A stretch of DNA of 64,000 nt from an uncultured Poribacteria bacterium (lineage in GTDB: Bacteria > Poribacteria > WGA-4E > WGA-3G): positions 2,816,001 through 2,880,000 of the forward strand of contig OX638351.1 of NCBI GenBank assembly GCA_951813565.1. Reading direction: 5' to 3'. This document shows, piece after piece, positions 6,021 to 21,892 of the stretch (position 1 is the first letter of the stretch; each line of letters starts with the position of its first letter). The position numbers were made by a program, and so were the translations under genes. The notes below the pieces were generated by a model. It saw only the letters and a program-made list of their open reading frames with translations. It did no database searches and was not told where the DNA came from.

Positions 6021-7133
6021 TTAGGCAGCCAAGCCTGCCTGTTTGATATTGATAGCAGCATTGATGTCTCTGTCGTGGTGTGAACCACATTCGGGACATG
6101 TCCACTGTCTATCTGCGAGAGAGAGTTCTTTGTTATGGTATCCACAATCACTACAAGGTTTTGTTGTTGCTATCCATTGAGAGATTTGCACAAGTTTTTT
6201 GCCGTGCTTCGCACACTTCTGTTCCAATATCTGAAGAAACTGGTAGAAAGAATGGTCAGAAACTTTACGTCCCCATAATCGTTTCATACCGTCAAGGTTC
6301 AGCGTTTCCAAAATGAGTGTGTCAAACTCTACACAAAGTTTTGAGGCAAGTTTCCATTGCCAATCTTCTCTTTGTCGGGCAACTTTTCTGTGTTGCCTTG
6401 CTAAAGCACGGCACGCACGATAATAGTTGTTAGAACCTTTGACTTTACGACTGAGTGCTTTGTTGAGAGATCGCAACGTGTTGAGTGATTGTTTGAAAAA
6501 CTGCGGAGATTGTCCCTTGTTGCCTTCGTCGCTTGTGAGGAACGTTTTGTTTCCGTAATCAAATCCTGCGCTCTTACCCGTCTTGGGTTTGGGTTCGGAA
6601 TCCTCAACATTCTCGCACGAAAAGCATATCCAATAGTCACCGCACCTGTCACGTTTGATCGTGATCGTCTTGATGACACCTTTGATTTCACGGTGTTTGT
6701 GAAAGGAAAACCATGTATCTATACAGTTGATTTTGATACGGTTATCTTCAAGTTTGTAGCCCGCTTGTGTGAAGGTCATGGAGTTGTATTTGTGTCTCGG
6801 TTTGATTTTCGGTCTACCCACTTTACGCGTTGTTTTGCCCGCTTTTCGGTCTTCGATATTCTCAAAGAAAGCGTCTTGAGATTTACCATAACGTAGGACA
6901 ACGTCTTGAACAACTTGACTCGGCAAGTCCGCCCAGTGTGGTTTAGTTGTTTTTTTGAGTTTCGCAACATGTGCCTTCAGACGATACGCAGACAAATTTT
7001 TGCCGAACATGCGATAATACCTACGTGCCAAACGCATGATATGTAGATGGATTTCCCACATATCATCAAGCATATTGCCGAGTTTGATTGTGTTAGATTG
7101 GTGTTGAAGTTTGAACTTGTGAGATTTTCTCAT
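6021..7133 (-). CDS. tnpB: RNA-guided endonuclease TnpB
   Basis: RuvC-I GFDYG, RuvC-II LETLNL, zinc finger CSDCG..CPECG, RuvC-III HDRDINAAINI; catalytic residues intact. Confidence 0.95.
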   Translation of the reverse strand: MRKSHKFKLQHQSNTIKLGNMLDDMWEIHLHIMRLARRYYRMFGKNLSAYRLKAHVAKLKKTTKPHWADLPSQVVQDVVLRYGKSQDAFFENIEDRKAGKTTRKVGRPKIKPRHKYNSMTFTQAGYKLEDNRIKINCIDTWFSFHKHREIKGVIKTITIKRDRCGDYWICFSCENVEDSEPKPKTGKSAGFDYGNKTFLTSDEGNKGQSPQFFKQSLNTLRSLNKALSRKVKGSNNYYRACRALARQHRKVARQREDWQWKLASKLCVEFDTLILETLNLDGMKRLWGRKVSDHSFYQFLQILEQKCAKHGKKLVQISQWIATTKPCSDCGYHNKELSLADRQWTCPECGSHHDRDINAAINIKQAGLAA

Positions 7134-11738: not shown

Positions 11739-12755
11739 TTAGGGATGTAACGCTGTTTTAACACCGCGTTGCGCGATAGCGTTATCAAAAGCTTCTAAAC
11801 CTTGTGAAATGGAAAACTGATCGGTTAGCAAAGGTTTGAAATTGATTGCTTCTTGTAGTAGGAGCTGGCGGGATTCTTGAAGGCTTGCTCGGGAAAATGC
11901 CCACGAAGCCATCAGTTTGTGTCCGGTATAGTGAAATTCTTCTAAGTTTATGCGAAGTTCCTCACCTTCCGGCGCAAGACCGAAAAAGTTGATACAACCG
12001 CCTTTGCGTATAACCTGAAAAGCGAGGTTAATCACTGACGTTTTATTTGTCGTAGCGGAGATGACGGTATCAACACCGCCGTGGGTGATTTCATGGAGAT
12101 GTGCAACATTGTCAGGAGAAATATCAAAAGCGGCATCGGCCCCGACAGTTTCTGCGACAGATCTGCGGTAGGGTAGAGGGTCCAGAACGTAGGTTGCTAA
12201 ACCTGCTCGTTTCGTCAATTGGGTGAACATCAACCCGATGGGACCAGCACCGAGGATGGCAACAGTGTTTTGGAAAATGGTTTCTTGCATCGCATTTAGG
12301 CAGCAGCCTAACGGTTCAAGGAAAAGTAGTTCTTCTGGTGGGATGGTGTCTGGCACTCGGATGAGTTTGCCCGTGTCTATGCCGTGTTTCGGCATCCGCA
12401 TGTATTCGGCGTAGCCGCCATCAATGTCGTGTCCGATACCTTCAATCGTATCGCAGTATTTGTCTTTGTCATTTCGGCAATGCACACAACTCCCGCACGA
12501 AAGCATCGGATTTACGGTGACCCGTTCGCCGACTTTTACTTCCGGATGCCGACTCTCAACGATTACACCTGCGAGTTCATGTCCCATCACAACAGGTGGT
12601 GAATAGTCTGATATATCGCCACGGAGCGCAGCAAGGTCAGATGCGCAGATACCGCACAACTCCATCTTGATAAGCACATCCCCGGCATTGAGTGTGGGAA
12701 TTGGTTTGTCTTGTATGCGTAACTGCTGAACTTTTTCAAAAACGATTGCTTTCAT
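11739..12755 (-). CDS. Zinc-dependent (MDR family) dehydrogenase
   Basis: MKAIV start, GICASD, GHE, CxxCxxC Zn site, GAGPIG. Confidence 0.92.
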   Translation of the reverse strand: MKAIVFEKVQQLRIQDKPIPTLNAGDVLIKMELCGICASDLAALRGDISDYSPPVVMGHELAGVIVESRHPEVKVGERVTVNPMLSCGSCVHCRNDKDKYCDTIEGIGHDIDGGYAEYMRMPKHGIDTGKLIRVPDTIPPEELLFLEPLGCCLNAMQETIFQNTVAILGAGPIGLMFTQLTKRAGLATYVLDPLPYRRSVAETVGADAAFDISPDNVAHLHEITHGGVDTVISATTNKTSVINLAFQVIRKGGCINFFGLAPEGEELRINLEEFHYTGHKLMASWAFSRASLQESRQLLLQEAINFKPLLTDQFSISQGLEAFDNAIAQRGVKTALHP

Positions 12756-12762
12756 ATACGTT

Positions 12763-14319
12763 CTACGCAACCAATGGGCAGTTTACGATGCTATAACTAT
12801 ATCCATCGCGCTTTTGAATTCTTCGGATTTCGGTAATATTTCCAGATTTTCTCGAATCTTTCTCTTCAGGTGCAAAGTATTCTACGCGAAGTTTACGAGG
12901 TTTGCCTACTGCGGTTTTATCAAAACAGTTGATTATCCCTTTCCATTTCCGATCTCGCTTTGTTATCTCAACGTAGTCAAACTTCGCAAAGCCATTTACA
13001 TGCGAAACCTTAGTTGATGGTTTGATGAAACCGGGTGCTTTCATGTCAAATATCTTGCCTACATTGTCGCGTCTACCATATCCTTTAGCTTCAATGATAG
13101 CAACTTGCAGCGACTTAGCTCGTTTCGGAACAATCGCAACAGACGCAGCATCATAATAATGCGTTTTCGGCAATCTGGCAAGATTCCGATGATGTGCTGT
13201 TTTTCCACCAGTGCCACTTATTATTGGGAGCCCTGTTGTTTTGAGTGTCTCAAACAGTTTCCACCGAATAGTGTTGATTGCTGCAGCATCAGAAAGACCC
13301 TTTTCAGATTTTCGGGCTGCTGCTTGGACCTTCTTTGCAAAATCAGTACCAAGCTTTTCTTCCAACTCGGCTCCGTGCAGTTTACCTTTCTTTTCGTTGC
13401 AGTCTTTACATGCCATCGTCAAGTTGCTCGGACGGTTATCTTCACGAACGGCTTTAGGTGCGATGTGTTCTACTTCTAAATGACGTTTGCCTTTTCCACA
13501 ATAAGCGCATTTTCTGCCAGTCAGTTCTAAAAGATATTCGCGTATCTCACGTCCCCATAAAGTTCCTTGTTGATATTCAATGCCATGTATACCAGGATTT
13601 TCCATCAACTGCATATCAAATTTCACCGTCTCAATTGCCAATTGTGTAATCGGGTAAATCTTACATAACCGTCGGGTCCAGGTCTCTAAATTGAAAACAC
13701 GGGACATCAAACTCGGTGCCACCCAACCATTATCGGCGACCCGTTGATGCACAACGCGAATGCGTCGCCAGCGTTTCTTTTGACGCTTGTTCGTTTTGGT
13801 GTCAGGTAAACGCTCCCAACGATACCGCTCGTCTAAAAACATCGCTTTTGACACGCGATTCAAGTCATTTTGAGATTTACTGGAATCCATTCCCTCTGGC
13901 ACTGAAGCACGTTCATATCTCCATCCGTTTTCTGTAAGAATTGGCACTTGACGTTTCCGATTTGCCCACCGAGCAGGACGATACCGTAGATTACGAGTTC
14001 TACGTCCTCTACGAAAGCCCGAACGTTTTTGAAGATTTCTTTTGATTTGCTGCCCACGGTGATGTAATTCCGCAGCATAGACTATATCCCCAGATTCAGA
14101 CACAATGGCGATTCCACTGATGCGTGATCCCGGGTCCCAACTCAACGTATACGGTTTTGTGACAATTTCCGATTCTGGAACTGCTTTCTTAAGAATAATC
14201 GTAAACGGGTATTTTCGCCATATTGCTGCTTCACCGCGTTTCAGTAGACGACGTGCTACAGCAGGATGACAAGGTTCTAAAGGGTTTTTGTCTGTATCAA
14301 TAACTGCTACTTTTGACAT
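12763..14319 (-). CDS. iscB: CRISPR-associated RNA-guided nuclease IscB with extra insertion after bridge helix
   Basis: PLMP-like N-term (PLEPCHPAVARRLL), RuvC-I WDPGS (D62), Arg-rich bridge helix, RuvC-II E230 (ETVKFD), HNH CAYC..EHI..N..CxxCN, RuvC-III H387/D390. Confidence 0.93.
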   Translation of the reverse strand: MSKVAVIDTDKNPLEPCHPAVARRLLKRGEAAIWRKYPFTIILKKAVPESEIVTKPYTLSWDPGSRISGIAIVSESGDIVYAAELHHRGQQIKRNLQKRSGFRRGRRTRNLRYRPARWANRKRQVPILTENGWRYERASVPEGMDSSKSQNDLNRVSKAMFLDERYRWERLPDTKTNKRQKKRWRRIRVVHQRVADNGWVAPSLMSRVFNLETWTRRLCKIYPITQLAIETVKFDMQLMENPGIHGIEYQQGTLWGREIREYLLELTGRKCAYCGKGKRHLEVEHIAPKAVREDNRPSNLTMACKDCNEKKGKLHGAELEEKLGTDFAKKVQAAARKSEKGLSDAAAINTIRWKLFETLKTTGLPIISGTGGKTAHHRNLARLPKTHYYDAASVAIVPKRAKSLQVAIIEAKGYGRRDNVGKIFDMKAPGFIKPSTKVSHVNGFAKFDYVEITKRDRKWKGIINCFDKTAVGKPRKLRVEYFAPEEKDSRKSGNITEIRRIQKRDGYSYSIVNCPLVA

Positions 14320-14330
14320 TTTTTATCCGT

Positions 14331-14580
14331 GGATGTTGAGATACCCGAAAGCACCTCAACATCCAAAGCTCGCCTTGCGGCGGTAATGTGAGCCTCGTCA
14401 ATGTTATTTCTGCTTTATAACAGGGTTGACAGCGTATTGTAAAGCTGTTTACATTGCCCCGACAGCGCTCCCGGCTGGCTCATGTACCTGGAGGTGTCTA
14501 TATCAGAAATAACGGATTTAATGTTTCCAACCCATAAAGGCTTGACTAGATACCACTTGGGCATGTTTTTTGTTGCAATT
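14331..14580 (-). ncRNA. omegaRNA/HEARO-like scaffold with 5' anti-repeat (tracrRNA-like)
   Basis: Minus strand carries HEARO-like blocks CGTTATTTCTG..GACACC..GCCAG..CTGTC..TAAACAG..CAGAAATAACATTGACGAGG..TTACC..CGCAAGGCG; anti-repeat 14549-14578; 3' hairpin 14331-14364. Confidence 0.8.
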
Positions 14581-14673
14581 TTTGCCGTCAACCTCCCAGC
14601 AAAAATGCAAGATTGGAGGTCGACTGCAAACTCTTAAGACTGACGCTTGACGCAGCTTGACTTTAAGTATAGG
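14581..14673. promoter_or_regulatory. Putative CRISPR leader with inverted repeat
   Basis: TTTGCCGTCAACCTCC..GGAGGTCGACTGCAAA palindrome next to the intact end of the array. Confidence 0.5.
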
Positions 14674-16445
14674 GTTGCAACTCAAACATGCCCAAGCGAT
14701 AACTGCTATCTTCAGCAAGTATCTGACCTTCCTTTTGGGCAAGTTGCAACTCAAACATGCCCAAGCGATAACCTTCAAACGTGTGCGAAAGGCGTTCAGC
14801 ATCTTTTTCGTTGCAACTCAAACATGCCCAAGCGATAACTCTGGTCTGCTGCTTCGTTTATAATGTCCTCAATAGCGTTGCAACTCAAACATGCCCAAGC
14901 GATAACTTATTTAAACGCATATCAAAAATGATAGCACTAAAAGTTGCAACTCAAACATGCCCAAGCGATAACTTGTTCAGCGGATATATCATCACTGGAT
15001 TTGACGCGTTGCAACTCAAACATGCCCAAGCGATAACACTATTCTATGAGACATTTGAGATAAAGCAAAAATTGTTGCAACTCAAACATGCCCAAGCGAT
15101 AACGTTTACCCCTCCGTTTTGCCTCACCAGTGACATCTACCGGTTGCAACTCAAACATGCCCAAGCGATAACTATGTGATGCCGCAATCTCCCAAGATGT
15201 TGGACTTAAGTTGCAACTCAAACATGCCCAAGCGATAACTTTCGATCCTGAAATACCATATGCTTGGGAGCGTGAGTTGCAACTCAAACATGCCCAAGCG
15301 ATAACGCGCGGACCGGCTTTGGTGCGTTCCGCTAATCCGTGATGTTGCAACTCAAACATGCCCAAGCGATAACTTCGGCACATACAACCCTGTAGCACCA
15401 CCTGTCTCGCGTTGCAACTCAAACATGCCCAAGCGATAACACAGAAGGCTTAGACGATTACATGAAACTCAAAAGTCGGTTGCAACTCAAACATGCCCAA
15501 GCGATAACCGAGAAGTAACGTGTGTTATCATTTTCATCTTTCCAGTTGCAACTCAAACATGCCCAAGCGATAACATGTAAAACACCCTTGACTGTCTCAG
15601 GCGTAACCAAGTTGCAACTCAAACATGCCCAAGCGATAACGAAGTACCAAGACCACGCTGCGCAAGATTGCCAGCAAAACGTTGCAACTCAAACATGCCC
15701 AAGCGATAACTTCGGCTGGGGTGATGAAGTATATCTTCAAGGAGTTAGTTGCAACTCAAACATGCCCAAGCGATAACATGGGCAATCGCAGTATCATCAA
15801 AACACTTGAGTTTGTTGCAACTCAAACATGCCCAAGCGATAACTCAGCTGTCCTTTTTCGTTTGCGATGTTGATGCCAAGTTGCAACTCAAACATGCCCA
15901 AGCGATAACGAAAATCGGGGATATAGTCGTAGCGCAAACAGAAGCGTTGCAACTCAAACATGCCCAAGCGATAACTGAGATTCTTTCTTGGGCAAATGAT
16001 GATAAAAATTCGGTTGCAACTCAAACATGCCCAAGCGATAACTCTACGGAGTCTGCACCTATAAATTGTGCGTAACGGTTGCAACTCAAACATGCCCAAG
16101 CGATAACAAAGATCGTCACCACAGGATTTAACAGCAAGGTCAAGGTTGCAACTCAAACATGCCCAAGCGATAACGTATTGGATTGCTCACGGGATTGTCC
16201 GATGCAACGCAGGTTGCAACTCAAACATGCCCAAGCGATAACCACCTCTGCTTTCACTGTAATTATTTTCTGTTTGGTGCGTTGCAACTCAAACATGCCC
16301 AAGCGATAACTCAAAACTTCGTTTAGCGACTTCTTTACTTCAACGCTATGTTGCAACTCAAACATGCCCAAGCGATAACCTATGAAAGCCATCGTTTTGA
16401 AAAAATCCATCAAGTTGCAACGCCAGCACGCTTAAGTGATATAAC
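14674..16445 (-). CRISPR. CRISPR array: 26 identical 30-bp repeats plus 1 degenerate repeat, 26 spacers of 34-40 nt
   Basis: + strand repeat GTTGCAACTCAAACATGCCCAAGCGATAAC; degenerate copy at 16414-16445; strand inferred from anti-repeat G-U pairing. Confidence 0.98.
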
Positions 16446-16449
16446 ATAC

Positions 16450-17478
16450 TTACTCAAACTCATAAGGCACTGTTTCGGACTGATGTGTCTTTGAGGATTT
16501 TTCTGCCAAATCCATGATGGCAATGACACGGCGAGCGGACTCAGGTGTCACGAGCAATGGGGTGCCATCGTTCAAATGCGCAACTATATTTTCATAGTAT
16601 CTGGGTCCGGGTCTTCCGTGATGACCTACTTTCTGTTCCTTCGGATGCCCTTCAACTTCGGATAAAACATGATATTGTCCGCCTTCAGAAACAATAGATC
16701 CGTGTGAACCGAGCATTTTCCATTTCGGTCCGCCGACCTTCGCGATGTTAGACATCTGGATGTTTGCTGACGCACCATCCGCAACAAATTCCCCTTCTGC
16801 AAATCGAATAATAGCTTGCACGTGGTCTTCGTTGGTAATGTCTTTCCAAACAAGGTTCGGCTGAAAGAAGCCGGTGACGTTAATCATGGGTGCTTCAAGA
16901 ATGTTAAGCAGCCAGTCAAGGAAGTGTGCGCCCCAGTCATAGAATTGTCCGCCAGAAATGGCTTTGACGCTGCGCCACCAATTCGGGTTCGGTCTGCCGT
17001 AGCCGCCACCCCACATCTCGGCACTATAGACTTTTCCGATGACACCAGACTGAACAAGTTCGCGGAGCGTCCAGAAGTCTGCGTCCCAACGGCGGTTGTG
17101 GTGAACTGATAGCATCACATCATTTTCTTTTGCAGCGGTAATCATTTCCGTTGCTTCTGCAATTGTGACGCACATCGGTTTTTCAACGACAACGTGTTTA
17201 CCTGCATTGTGGGCTGCCACAGTCGGATCGCAGTGTAGACTGTGCGGCAGGACGTTCGCGACGAGATCAACATCTTCGTCTGCTACGAGGTCTTCAACGG
17301 AGTTGTAAGTTCGGACGTCGGGAAAATCCTGTTTGGCTGCCTTTGTCCGCTCTGGATCAATGTCGCACACTGCAACGCATGTGATGCCTTCTGTGCCTTG
17401 CATCATATTTGCGTGTGCTTTACCCATATTAAATGCTGCCCCATAACCGAGAACAGCACCTTTAATAATATCTGCCAT
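16450..17478 (-). CDS. Gfo/Idh/MocA family oxidoreductase
   Basis: AVLGYG, AGKHVVVEKP, HNRRWDADF, DWGAHFLD. Confidence 0.93.
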   Translation of the reverse strand: MADIIKGAVLGYGAAFNMGKAHANMMQGTEGITCVAVCDIDPERTKAAKQDFPDVRTYNSVEDLVADEDVDLVANVLPHSLHCDPTVAAHNAGKHVVVEKPMCVTIAEATEMITAAKENDVMLSVHHNRRWDADFWTLRELVQSGVIGKVYSAEMWGGGYGRPNPNWWRSVKAISGGQFYDWGAHFLDWLLNILEAPMINVTGFFQPNLVWKDITNEDHVQAIIRFAEGEFVADGASANIQMSNIAKVGGPKWKMLGSHGSIVSEGGQYHVLSEVEGHPKEQKVGHHGRPGPRYYENIVAHLNDGTPLLVTPESARRVIAIMDLAEKSSKTHQSETVPYEFE

Positions 17479-20484: not shown

Positions 20485-21892
20485 CGCAATAAGTAGTTTT
20501 GGACTTTCAAAAAGCCCTTAAGCGTTATGGAAATTTATACTTAATAGGGTATGAGAATTCGGAAAAGCACTAAACGGCGAAGACTAATTTCTAACTCTAA
20601 TCTGCGAGAACTTCTGCCCCTCCACCTCACATCGGTATAAAAGTTGAGCGCGCTTGATAGATACTTTGCAACGGCAGACAATTCTTCTAATCGTTTTGCC
20701 GTTGTGATATGAGTGTGGTCCAGCTTGTCAAGACCTTATTCTCTAAGTTCTTCTGCCATCGTTGAGTGAGTCTTCATCTCATACTCTCATTGACAAACTT
20801 ATCAAAAATGCTCTCAATGTTCCTATAGTTGTATTTATAGCACGCCTCTGCGACATATAGGGGCGTGTATTCAGTCCAATAGTGGTGATGACTTCCATAC
20901 CAAGCACGTTTGAGAAGTGACCAGAAGCCTTCAATCGTATTGGTATGGACATCACCGTCAACAAATTGTTCTTGATGATCAATGATATGGTGCTTCATCT
21001 CTTTACCGAGTGTGAGATAAGCCTTATACTCATCAGTCATCAACTGCGATTTATCTACTTTAACAACTTCGCGAATAAAATTTAAGATAGTCCGTCCCGT
21101 CAAATCTTTTGCGAGTCTTGCCACAACTTTCCCACCGCGTTCAATCGCTCCGATGATAGCATCTTTATCAGTGCCACGCCCACGCTTAGCAGGATCCCTG
21201 TCCTCTTTTTTGTTCGCTTTGCGAGGTTTACCCCCGACATAAGTTTCGTCAGCCTCTATGATACCTTGTAAGAGGATATTATCTTTAGCCATTTCAGCAC
21301 GGATGCATGTTCCCATACGCCACGCAGTCTTTTGATTCAAGTCCAAATCTCTTGCCAACTGATGACTTGAAAGACTCTTTTTAGCATTCGTCATCAACGA
21401 GATAGCCAAAAACCACTTCTGAAGTGCTATCTTTGTCCCGTGAAACACCGTGCCACAAGTAACCTTGAAAGTAGCAGTGCAATCGTGGCATTGCCAGCGC
21501 CCGATGCGTCCCAATTCCGTTTCTGTTCGTCTTGCAACGTTTGGGCAATCACAATGTGGACACTTCGGTTTACCCTTCCACCGAATACTCTCTAAATGTT
21601 CAATACAACTCTCTTGATCAGGGAATCGTTCCATCACTTTCAACAAATCCATCAGAAAACTCCTTTTTAGGAGTTGCTTTTTCTGACAGGTTTCTGATAC
21701 AATAATTAGATAAGACAGAATGCCAGAAAAGCAACTCGCTTTTTTGTGTTCAATTAGGGGGTTAGCAGCCCTCTAATTTCTTATCTAAATTGTATCATAT
21801 TTTCACAATTAAAACAAGCGAAAAATGTAGTCTACACAAGGATTTAGAGCGATTTTTAAAATTTTGTTGAAAGTCCAAAACTACTTATTGCG
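20485..21892 (-). mobile_element. IS1595-family insertion sequence
   Basis: 26-bp TIR CGCAATAAGTAGTTTTGGACTTTCAA; 8-bp TSD TTGAATAA. Confidence 0.92.
20774..21652 (-). CDS. IS1595-family transposase
   Basis: Zn ribbon CPHC..CHDC, EADETYVGG, MTDE, HTNTIEGFWSLLKR. Confidence 0.95.
   Translation of the reverse strand: MDLLKVMERFPDQESCIEHLESIRWKGKPKCPHCDCPNVARRTETELGRIGRWQCHDCTATFKVTCGTVFHGTKIALQKWFLAISLMTNAKKSLSSHQLARDLDLNQKTAWRMGTCIRAEMAKDNILLQGIIEADETYVGGKPRKANKKEDRDPAKRGRGTDKDAIIGAIERGGKVVARLAKDLTGRTILNFIREVVKVDKSQLMTDEYKAYLTLGKEMKHHIIDHQEQFVDGDVHTNTIEGFWSLLKRAWYGSHHHYWTEYTPLYVAEACYKYNYRNIESIFDKFVNESMR

Follow-up and report, generated by a model that had tools for sequence, protein, structure and literature searches.

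CRISPR-associated IscBs were reportedly described by Altae-Tran et al. in Science in 2021, and to date these proteins have been treated mainly as compact editors. One of them, DelIscB, has 457 aa and the target-adjacent motif (TAM) NAC, and the available part of the account that covers it (PMC12660989) presents CasIscB loci in which the IscB ORF is preceded by a non-coding RNA with spacers, repeats, and an anti-repeat, adaptation genes are missing, and the repeat/anti-repeat hairpin forms a natural single guide. The same text discusses this arrangement as a step from omegaRNA to crRNA plus tracrRNA and leaves open whether and how the RNA of CRISPR-associated IscBs is processed and used with different spacers. 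In the accessible portion of PMC10734277, CRISPR associations of IscB are described as independent small branches. The locus that we analyzed, in a 64,000-nucleotide stretch of an uncultured Poribacteria genome (the window), shares the CasIscB anatomy. It differs from DelIscB in that its IscB has 518 aa with a 76-aa REC-site insertion and in that the flank of its single protospacer starts with TGG. A type I-B leader remnant, antisense reading of the array, a spacer shared with type I-B, natural expression, and an insertion polymorphism are further features that we did not find in the available part of PMC12660989.

Three other kinds of system invite comparison. Canonical IscB-omegaRNA systems of IS200/IS605 elements (OgeuIscB, 7xht/7utn; KraIscB loci L026 and others) resemble ours in domain order, in catalytic residues, and in the omegaRNA core that lies 3′ of the first stem, but their first stem is closed in cis, they carry 4 aa at the REC site, and they have no array. 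The canonical IscBs of Ktedonobacter, which are ∼41% identical to the 518-aa protein, occur in many copies per genome, whereas the IscB studied here is present once and has a split stem. Type II-D Cas9 (Cas9d), as described in the available part of PMC9755519, often lacks adaptation genes at its locus and uses a large structured guide RNA, and it likewise is a compact RuvC/HNH effector adjoining an array and a tracrRNA. However, Cas9d has ∼750 aa (747 aa in the accessible text of PMC11706934) and a real REC lobe, whereas our protein has retained an IscB length and most of the omegaRNA, and a tree built without Cas9 places it with IscBs. Lastly, the accessible part of a report on Listeria seeligeri (bioRxiv 10.1101/2024.10.25.620265) describes a type VI-A array to which type II-C Cas1-2 adds spacers, with priming by type I-B, so that, as we propose here, an effector locus without cas1-cas2 obtains spacers through the integrase of a co-resident CRISPR type. 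In our case the borrowing is deduced from sequence, and the recipient array carries a leader of the donor type and is read in the opposite direction. Our literature search found nothing on IscB in Poribacteria, although the 2021 locus list of Altae-Tran et al. may already include this clade, and, among the papers listed, nothing that joins IscB to a type I-B leader and spacer acquisition in trans.

The IscB cassette and its nuclease

The locus is a CRISPR-associated IscB cassette, a kind that has already been published. On the minus strand, a 26(+1)-repeat array is followed by a 43-nt linker, a hairpin, an anti-repeat within a remodeled omegaRNA, and iscB (Table 1). This confirmed the original prediction of an intact iscB, a structured RNA, and an array on the minus strand. 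The predicted linker of ∼95 nt also held, as the anti-repeat starts 94 nt past the last repeat, and the 26 predicted spacers resolve into 25 spacers of 35 to 40 nt plus one stretch of 33 to 34 nt next to a degenerate repeat copy. Pfam identified the flanking genes as Gfo/Idh/MocA and Zn-ADH. Between these housekeeping genes we found no cas1, cas2, or tnpA, and there is no Y1 transposase in the window. The absence of cas1/cas2 and tnpA that had been claimed is therefore true of the locus but not of the genome, which elsewhere contains two cas1 loci (at 1.20 and 3.99 Mb) and 10 Y1-transposase matches and whose type I-B/III-A locus includes cas1-cas4. Both iscB and HEARO are single-copy in the genome. 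No IS200/IS605 marks were found at the locus, where linker and array, not flank DNA, lie ahead of the scaffold.

Table 1. Features of the cassette, in window positions
Feature	Position	Strand	Evidence
Whole cassette as insertion/deletion polymorphism	12757..16450		X4 contig and flanks of relatives
iscB, 518 aa	12763..14319	-	ORF, Pfam, PDB chains, alignment, structure model
omegaRNA-derived tracrRNA-like scaffold, first stem broken in cis	14383..14624	-	Full-length HEARO match, 56 bits
Anti-repeat, complementary to the array repeat	14549..14579	-	Duplex energy, covariation, cis fold
Hairpin, homolog of a conserved hairpin in the distal leader of type I-B arrays of the phylum	14581..14630	-	17-mer, alignment A2
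Linker, type I-B leader/repeat junction remnant	14631..14673	-	Alignment A2
Array: 26 identical repeats of 30 nt, 25 spacers of 35-40 nt	14674..16379 (uncertain by one base of register)	-	Exact repeat search
Spacer 22, matches IMG/VR viral contig	14907..14942	-	36/36
sp0, oldest 'spacer'	16380..16413	-	Reverse complement of the start of relatives' Zn-ADH gene
Degenerate terminal repeat	16414..16445	-	9 mismatches, 2-nt insertion

The protein encoded by iscB matched the Pfam families RRXRR (3.4e-60) and HNH (2e-09), and its best solved relatives are IscBs, namely TbaIscB (4e-35) and OgeuIscB (5e-19). Its domain plan consists of a PLMP-type N-terminus, a RuvC domain interrupted by an arginine-rich helix and by HNH, and a C-terminal TAM domain. 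The RuvC residues D62, E230, H387, and D390 and the HNH residue H285, previously called intact, are the same in 26 of the 27 other IscBs of a 28-sequence alignment that includes two cut-off ORF rows, one without the D62 column and the other with W at D390. Among 65 relatives, H285, H387, and D390 are invariant, and D62 and E230 are found in at least 90%. The REC-site insertion spans residues 123 to 198; across the array-associated clade it ranges from 22 to 149 aa, compared with 4 aa in canonical IscBs. A structure model gave a pLDDT of 77 overall, 41 to 78 over most of the insertion, and 88 at residues 171 to 180. There is no REC lobe of the Cas9 type, the REC site holding only this insertion, modeled at low to moderate confidence. 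In a tree restricted to IscBs, the 17 with this kind of RNA group in a single branch (100/100) that excludes the 11 canonical IscBs. The protein groups with IscBs in this Cas9-free tree, and its earlier description as an IscB-to-Cas9 intermediate is an analogy. The clade comprises more than 60 nucleases of 489 to 673 aa.

A proposed split omegaRNA with repeat/anti-repeat pairing

The HEARO family of Rfam aligned to the scaffold over the full model (E 9e-10), without reaching the gathering score of 83 and with the first stem unpaired. The canonical IscB loci that we compared scored 102 to 134 bits with the first stem closed in cis. The anti-repeat sits where a canonical omegaRNA has the 3′ strand of the first stem. 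In the proposed arrangement, the array repeat, immediately 3′ of each spacer, would supply the 5′ strand of this stem, and the 3′ strand would have turned into the anti-repeat of a tracrRNA-like scaffold. The repeat/anti-repeat duplex in the window has a predicted energy of -38.3 kcal/mol against a mean of -21.7 kcal/mol for 200 shuffled repeats, none of which was as low. Cognate duplexes reached -38 to -40.6 kcal/mol in six of 11 loci (0/200 shuffles as low) and -30.4 kcal/mol in a seventh (1/200). In four of the 11, an insertion of ∼50 nt splits the anti-repeat, and the simple duplex is little or no better than shuffles (1, 8, 32, and 45 of 200 as low).

In alignment A1, the 8-bp lower stem of the duplex is 79.3% paired, compared with 24 to 44% in slid controls, and seven cells, in three pairs, have changed on both sides, with a covariation score of 0.368 versus 0.133 (0/500 shuffles). 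For a 20-bp version of the stem, changes on both sides were found in eight pairs and 17 cells. These counts were made on a reference-based alignment in which one locus (L092) is misaligned and scored as unpaired. Repeat and anti-repeat thus co-vary across the 11 loci, which supports the prediction of a CRISPR-associated IscB with a tracrRNA-like omegaRNA.

In the predicted cis fold, the last repeat pairs with the anti-repeat (z -4.59). The guide that is predicted directly is this cis form only, made of last spacer, last repeat, loop, and anti-repeat, and it is covered by RNA contigs. In the sponge metatranscriptome X10, contigs over 14381-14515 and 14486-14703 have a depth of ∼500, compared with 0 to 2.5 over the iscB ORF and at most 15 over the flanks, and in run X13 a single contig spans 14394-14703. 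These contigs come from a variant strain (6-8 differences) and are strandless, without ends or processing; because of the strain difference, depth over the array and the uncovered parts is uninformative. We propose that the array would be transcribed in the direction of iscB, from its far end, and that last spacer, last repeat, linker, hairpin, and anti-repeat would fold into a natural single guide. After RNase cleavage, spacer-repeat units from earlier in the array could be used in trans by pairing with the scaffold. However, searches for RNase III with TIGR02191 and PF14622 found no match in this genome, and across 31 genomes, counting this one and 30 relatives, none scored over the cut-off, making type II-style maturation doubtful. 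The multi-guide use originally predicted would need crRNA maturation and is therefore only a possibility for the 25 older spacers.

Array turnover, leader homology, and spacer targets

The 30-nt repeat occurs in 26 exact copies, all in this array, and nowhere else in the 5.43-Mb genome. The oldest, degenerate 27th copy lies at the end far from iscB and resembles an older form of the repeat, of which locus L086 has a solo copy. Seven of 11 loci have degenerate distal repeats, and the proximal repeat equals the consensus of its own array in 10; the exception, L080, has a G-to-A variant common to its four proximal copies. The newest end of the array is probably at 14674, on the iscB-proximal side. 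Four orthologous loci are 94 to 99% identical in omegaRNA and iscB, yet have only one old distal spacer in common. Sigma-70-like sites at the distal end point into the array in all three loci scanned, whereas no promoter-like site was found at the distal end of the window array itself. The association is not confined to this genome: 10 of 20 upstream regions from the phylum have homologous 30-nt-repeat arrays of 4 to 28 repeats on the iscB strand, and nine other genomes carry such arrays.

The iscB-proximal flank of the array is homologous to a type I-B leader. Of the two genomic sites of a 17-mer from the hairpin, one is here and the other adjoins the type I-B array; across the phylum, 48 of 176 genomes contain this 17-mer. 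Among 30 loci with this 17-mer, 20 were type I-B array leaders, one an IscB array, and nine chance hits in coding sequence. In alignment A2, the repeat/leader junction and the hairpin are common to IscB and I-B arrays, and a 35+6 nt gap in the IscB-array flank marks the place of the I-B leader promoter. As this flank is a type I-B leader without its promoter, IscB would read the array toward the leader. Together with the cas1-cas4 genes elsewhere, the leader remnant suggests that adaptation is probably borrowed and not absent. The array repeat and the type I-B repeat agree at only 11 of 30 positions, so use of the former by the I-B integrase is not assured.

Evidence for such borrowing came from shared spacers. 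In genome G094, a spacer of the IscB array equals a type I-B spacer (36/37) with the same ends, and its orientation, IscB sense being I-B antisense, is the one predicted from leader polarity. An identical spacer common to both arrays was found in this one of seven genomes compared; two further spacer overlaps were seen, G000 has an overlap of 17 nt only, and no spacers are shared with the type I-B arrays of G152, G090, G089 (two arrays), G075, or G171. Spacer lengths (35-40 nt) equal those of the genome's type I-B array. Cas1b scored over the cut-off in seven of 10 array-bearing genomes; G150 has an array of 8-9 repeats but lacks a Cas1 match, Cas1b is missing from G160, and a fragment is all that was found in G173 and likewise in G146, an eleventh genome whose contig ends at iscB. 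On this comparative evidence, the IscB array is probably refilled by type I-B proteins in trans.

Comparison of spacers with viral records, as suggested in the original prediction, gave one clear target. Spacer 22 has 36/36 matches in an IMG/VR viral contig and in genome G148, where the matched gene is prophage-like, and DNA run X1 contains the same protospacer between foreign flanks. A PHROGs search of the targeted gene returned only two weak matches, both of unknown function. The viral match backs the proposed antiviral role. The 3′ flank of the protospacer starts with TGG, which is CCA on the I-B side, a candidate motif taken from this one protospacer; type I-B of C. difficile adapts at CCN, according to the available part of PMC8406132. 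For 24 of the 26 spacers no target was found in the sequences searched, and against their own genome no spacer has a mismatch-free match of at least 22 nt. In searches of 176 genomes, the window array had a single true target besides gene-start matches of sp0, the L084 array matched only a type I-B spacer, and the L078 array found nothing. The type I-B array gave mostly array-to-array matches from which no PAM was derivable, and nothing significant in the viral record.

The oldest spacer, sp0, matches the start of the Zn-ADH gene of relatives, which is the empty insertion site, over 29 to 31 nt at ∼96% identity. Its best stretch against the genome's own ADH start is 17/18, with several mismatches overall, and flank matches of this kind were found in none of the other 10 loci. 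In relatives, Gfo/Idh and ADH are 112 nt apart, and in DNA run X4 one contig passes from 12756 to 16451 with 79 other letters in between. The latter is an empty-site allele, which coexists with the occupied allele in that run.

Competing readings and significance

Our overall reading, which we regard as fairly probable as a whole, is a split-omegaRNA IscB cassette whose array would be derived from and refilled by type I-B. The ancestor of the array and its iscB-proximal flank would be a type I-B array together with a leader that has since lost its promoter, and the host's Cas1-Cas2-Cas4 would insert new spacers at that flank in trans. Since IscB would read antisense to I-B polarity, the leader-side type I PAM would fall 3′ of the IscB guide, where a TAM is needed, and IscB would cut DNA matching the repeat-proximal part of the spacer beside a 3′ motif. 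A more specific history is possible, and we offer it tentatively: in this class 1/class 2 hybrid, an IscB element would have captured an I-B array with its leader, lost the promoter, and come to read backwards spacers that Cas1-Cas2-Cas4 still writes, with the newest spacer in a ready single guide and the oldest recording RNA-guided homing into the present site.

The effector and split guide could be as we describe and the array nevertheless owe nothing to I-B proteins at present, having been filled by another Cas1, by array recombination, or in past events, with the leader a functionless relic. The 19 repeat positions that differ from the I-B repeat, the arrays kept in G150 and G160 without a Cas1 or Cas1b match, the restriction of common spacers to one of seven genomes, and the second cas1 locus would fit this account. 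We nonetheless think it rather unlikely, given the identical ends and predicted orientation of the G094 spacer, the spacer-length distribution equal to that of the type I-B array, the conservation of leader junction and hairpin while the promoter between them was lost, and the turnover of spacers between near-identical loci. Alternatively, the cassette might be a selfish mobile element whose array stores homing guides, IscB cutting empty sites and any antiviral effect being secondary. The identity of sp0 as the reverse complement of the empty insertion site, which the cassette parts from its 3′ flank, points that way, as do the coexisting alleles in X4 and the ten Y1 matches elsewhere. Yet the cassette is single-copy, no sp0-like flank match is found at the other 10 loci, sp0 has become a poor match to the ADH start of its own genome, one of the other spacers has a viral match, and Cas1-Cas2 adaptation is indicated by spacer lengths and by the shared spacer, so that we consider this improbable.

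Lastly, an orphan class 1 array serving I-B/III-A only might lie by chance beside an ordinary, flank-guided IscB. Repeat length, spacer length, and repeat terminus do look class 1, and the flank is a type I-B leader remnant. However, the covariation of repeat and anti-repeat across loci, an association kept through the whole IscB clade, a first omegaRNA stem unable to close in cis, the deletion of the I-B leader promoter with far-end promoters driving the iscB sense, and a repeat found nowhere else in the genome make this reading disfavored to the point of being barely credible.

Taken together, this clade gives testable sequence-level answers to where the array of a CRISPR-associated IscB may come from (an I-B array with its leader), what may fill it (Cas1-Cas2-Cas4 in trans), why it may be read backwards (PAM/TAM geometry), and whether it is active in nature, the last resting on the viral match, the abundant RNA, spacer turnover, and the insertion polymorphism. 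The clade also displays graded growth of the REC-site insertion (4 to 149 aa) as the omegaRNA 5′ module is lost, which is the trend that has been proposed for the transition from IscB to Cas9. In practical terms, the nucleases of the clade come with natural single-guide designs and possibly a short motif. If the hybrid reading is true, backward reading would convert a 5′ type I PAM into a 3′ motif of the IscB/Cas9 type, so that one adaptation module would arm two effectors against opposite strands of the same virus, and the cassette would be a living model for a possible origin of type II CRISPR.

Architecture and insertion of the cassette

Upon inspection of the window, we found the array, the scaffold and an intact iscB arranged as first described (table below), the sole adjustment being a shift of the repeat register by one base. 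Within the 5.43-Mb single-contig genome, the repeat is confined to the cassette, and iscB and its HEARO-type RNA occur as one copy each. The protein carries the Pfam domains RRXRR and HNH, and its best relatives of solved structure are IscBs. Alignment with IscBs upheld the claim that the RuvC and HNH catalytic residues are intact, with D62, E230, H285, H387 and D390 all retained. An IS1595-family transposase gene (DDE_Tnp_IS1595 plus zinc ribbon) lies 4 kb from the cassette, at 20774-21652 on the minus strand.

Features of the cassette and its flanks, in window coordinates
Feature	Position	Strand
Gfo/Idh/MocA oxidoreductase, housekeeping flank	16450-17478	
Degenerate repeat	16414-16445	minus
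sp0, 33-34-nt stretch	16380-16413	minus
26 identical 30-nt repeats and 25 spacers of 35-40 nt	16379 down to 14674	minus
Linker, 43 nt	14631-14673	minus
Hairpin, 50 nt	14581-14630	minus
Anti-repeat	14549-14579	minus
Remaining omegaRNA-like scaffold	down to ~14383	minus
iscB	14319-12763	minus
Zn-alcohol dehydrogenase (ADH), housekeeping flank	start at 12755	

The cassette is an insertion between two housekeeping genes. The flanking genes stand 112 nt from each other in a complete genome of this genus, and a contig from DNA run X4 joins 12756 to 16451 through 79 other letters at depth 35, with the occupied form at depth 20. The oldest "spacer", sp0, corresponds in reverse complement to the beginning of the ADH gene in the form that relatives carry. 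It would guide IscB to the empty site, with its 3′ side in intergenic DNA now displaced by the cassette. Since sp0-like flank matches were found in none of the other ten loci with arrays, RNA-guided homing into the present site may serve as a lead, nothing more.

Repeat/anti-repeat pairing and the IscB clade

The Rfam HEARO model matched 14383-14624 over its full length (E 9e-10), but its 56 bits fell short of the gathering score of 83, and the first-stem pairs were flagged as broken. Canonical omegaRNAs from the same phylum and from Ktedonobacteria scored 102-134 bits with the first stem closed in cis, whereas that of the window is not. In the window scaffold, the former 3′ strand of the first stem now forms the anti-repeat's 3′ end, and the 5′ end of the repeat replaces the 5′ strand, directly after the spacer, in the position required for a guide.

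Duplex energy, folding in cis and covariation bore out the proposal of a tracrRNA-like omegaRNA. The duplex of repeat and anti-repeat has a predicted energy of −38.3 kcal/mol; 200 shuffled repeats averaged −21.7, and not one of them reached so low a value. When the contiguous RNA 14723-14376 was folded, the last repeat and the anti-repeat formed a stem enclosing the linker and hairpin (−114.6 kcal/mol, z −4.59), giving a natural single guide of the same kind as that reported for DelIscB in the available portion of its description (PMC12660989). For covariation, our alignment comprised 11 loci, several of them close kin, each represented by its last repeat and 270 nt more. The 8-bp lower stem was paired in 79.3% of cells, compared with 24-44% when the partner was slid, with the misaligned row L092 scored as unpaired. 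Three of its pairs (7 cells) were altered on both sides (covariation score 0.368 versus 0.133; 0/500 shuffles). A 20-bp version of the stem showed both-side changes in 8 pairs (17 cells). In four loci, a ~50-nt hairpin inserted within the anti-repeat limits the comparison to the lower 8 bp, and their simple duplex energies are weak. A U-U mismatch at repeat position 2 is conserved in 10/11 rows.

Our protein search of 176 genomes of the phylum yielded homologues at E ≤ 1e-30 in 20. Array and homologues co-occur, as the original prediction implied: ten of the 20 upstream regions fetched, from nine further genomes, contain homologous 30-nt-repeat arrays of 4 to 28 copies on the iscB strand. Six of the remaining ten had no array according to the finder (one of them has a solo repeat by eye), and four had other or very short repeats. 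A named public relative, a Candidatus Poribacteria MAG, is 73% identical and has 13 repeats. In a maximum-likelihood tree of 28 IscBs, including three cut-off ORFs, the window protein falls in a single branch (100/100 support) with the other carriers of this RNA type, 17 in all, and the 11 canonical IscBs lie outside it; the RNA type was assigned by eye for six of the 17, with doubt in the cases of L088 and L090. In 11/11 canonical proteins, 4 residues lie between the arginine-rich helix and RuvC-II; in the clade there are 22 to 149 (76 in the window). This site is described as the location of REC-like inserts in the portion of PMC13180657 available, and the AlphaFold model of the window IscB is too uncertain at the insertion to name its fold.

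Several related loci differ in layout. Just upstream of position 7005 at L086 (G112:C178), a solo 30-nt repeat is followed by a linker and anti-repeat, with 13/14 lower-stem pairs by eye. At L090 (G113:C159, ~1679-2142), the repeat of a 4-copy mini-array is itself, by eye, the 5′ strand of the first omegaRNA stem, and the array, which lacks a leader-type hairpin, continues directly into the scaffold, another way of arriving at an array. The IscB-type repeat also occurs singly at G129:C52:12058-12095 (95% over 38 nt) and G098:C78:4513-4547 (97% over 35 nt), both in genomes without a close iscB homologue. A cobalamin riboswitch lies immediately upstream of a canonical omegaRNA (L095, 1263-1456), and at another IscB locus a group II intron is found upstream (L085, 3079-3950).

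Leader homology, array growth and the source of spacers

A 17-mer of the hairpin has exactly two copies in the genome, one in the cassette and one in a type I-B/III-A locus at 1.198-1.218 Mb, where it lies ~97 nt away from the final repeat of a 48-repeat array. At ≤1 mismatch it was found in 48/176 genomes, the majority of which lack this IscB. Upon fetching 30 of these loci, we found 19 in which a type I-B-type array stops ~97 nt short of the hairpin, one with a partial repeat at the contig start, one other IscB array, and nine one-mismatch matches in coding sequence. When aligned with type I-B leaders, the IscB linker shares the hairpin and the five bases adjoining the repeat, and lacks 35+6 nt that hold a perfect array-directed promoter in the type I-B leader. 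By this homology, the iscB-side flank of the array is a type I-B leader. The IscB and type I-B repeats are identical at only 11/30 positions, which counts against refilling of the array by the type I-B integrase. With the two hairpins brought to the same orientation, the type I-B repeat is antisense to the type I-B crRNA. The direction in which IscB reads its array is therefore towards the leader rather than away from it.

Type I-B leaders, such as G000:C1:1201395-1201530 in the window's genome and that of L098, contain a second copy of the hairpin 3′ arm ~95 nt beyond, which could pair with the 5′ arm instead; the L092 IscB scaffold retains this long form with a ~110-nt insert. The composite type I-B and III-A locus (G000:C1:1198128-1218082) encodes cas6, cas8b, cas7, cas5, cas3, cas10/csm2-5, a ring-nuclease-like gene, cas4 and cas1b, and its Csm2 ORF bears an N-terminal cold-shock domain. 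The genes for its Cas1-Cas2-Cas4 lie at C1:1.2018-1.2038 Mb.

The iscB-distal repeat is degenerate in 7/11 loci (2-9 mismatches), and the window's degenerate copy is similar to the L086 solo repeat. The iscB-nearest repeat equals the array consensus in 10/11 loci; the exception is L080, where one G-to-A change is common to the four iscB-proximal repeats, a pattern that copying of the proximal repeat with every insertion would produce. Sigma-70-like sites are aimed into the array from its far end in all three relatives scanned (11/12 matches in L084; 9/12 plus a TG extension in L078 and L079). No such site was found at the far end of the window array, where read-through from the upstream gene is possible. 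Among four orthologous loci, flanks are 88-92% and omegaRNA plus iscB 94-99% identical, with spacer sets that differ except for one old distal spacer. Taken together, these observations indicate growth of the arrays on their iscB side and rapid turnover, though the cassettes encode no integrase.

Spacers of the IscB array have the same lengths as those in the type I-B array (mode 36-37). Cas1b exceeded the curated cut-off in seven of the ten genomes with arrays; the others had a fragment, another Cas1 only, and none, respectively. G146, an eleventh genome whose contig ends at iscB, has a Cas1b fragment only. In G094, a 37-nt IscB-array spacer matches a type I-B-array spacer at 36/37 positions with the same ends, in exactly the orientation predicted from leader homology. 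A second type I-B spacer overlaps the target of this common spacer, and a third overlaps a different IscB spacer on the opposite strand. Five other genomes had no spacers common to both arrays, and the window's genome only a 17-nt overlap. Spacers are also repeated within single arrays (17 and 23 in L084, 4 and 6 in L077, 9/10 and 43/46 in the window genome's own type I-B array), and the 1-nt offset between L084 spacers 17 and 23 suggests two acquisitions from one protospacer. A second CRISPR locus (G000:C1:3989138-3996440) has a cas1 most similar to I-D and Cas4g/Cas1g models; its neighbours are a reverse transcriptase of the group II intron type and an array of 54 repeats, each 37 nt long.

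The type I PAM is located on the leader side of the spacer. Read backwards, it would fall on the spacer's 3′ side, where IscB would need its motif, a geometry that fits adaptation of the IscB array in trans by the type I-B integrase. Adaptation by another system's integrase has experimental precedent in Listeria, according to the portion of the preprint available (bioRxiv 10.1101/2024.10.25.620265). The sole solid protospacer, a single case, is flanked in the virus by TGG on its 3′ side, corresponding to CCA when read in the type I-B sense. For the type I-B system of C. difficile, the adaptation PAM is given as CCN in the available part of PMC8406132.

Targets, RNA signal and guide use

The search of viral sequences was productive for spacer 22 (14907-14942), the spacer with this TGG flank, which matched a 45.8-kb IMG/VR viral contig at 36/36 positions as well as a prophage-like gene in G148. 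Its protospacer is also present in foreign flanks in DNA run X1. In the sponge metatranscriptome X10, contigs cover 14381-14515 (depth 507) and 14486-14703 (depth 488, 6 differences), a span of scaffold, hairpin, linker and last repeat; elsewhere, depth was 0-2.5 over the iscB ORF and at most 15 over the flanks. A single contig from RNA run X13 extends across 14394-14703. The contigs of both runs derive from a variant strain and carry neither strand nor end information.

RNase III was not found in the window's genome with two models. Across this genome and 30 relatives of the order, none of the 31 had a match above the curated cut-off, the weak matches being to the double-stranded-RNA-binding part only. 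Maturation of crRNAs by the type II route is thus improbable, and the older array spacers are only putative guides for IscB.

CRISPR-associated IscBs were indeed already known. In the portions of these papers available, a review reports that several small IscB branches took on CRISPR associations independently (PMC10734277), and DelIscB has been characterised and engineered (PMC12660989). Our literature search returned no publication linking IscB to Poribacteria. Within the accessible parts of the CRISPR-associated IscB literature, the original 2021 study aside, we found no description of a type I-B leader remnant, antisense reading or a shared spacer, nor of a REC-site gradient within one clade, a natural RNA signal or insertion polymorphism. 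One reading that we infer from the sequences is that IscB would use guides derived from the array to cleave targets bearing a 3′ motif, following RNA processing, and that the array may be replenished by adaptation in trans.
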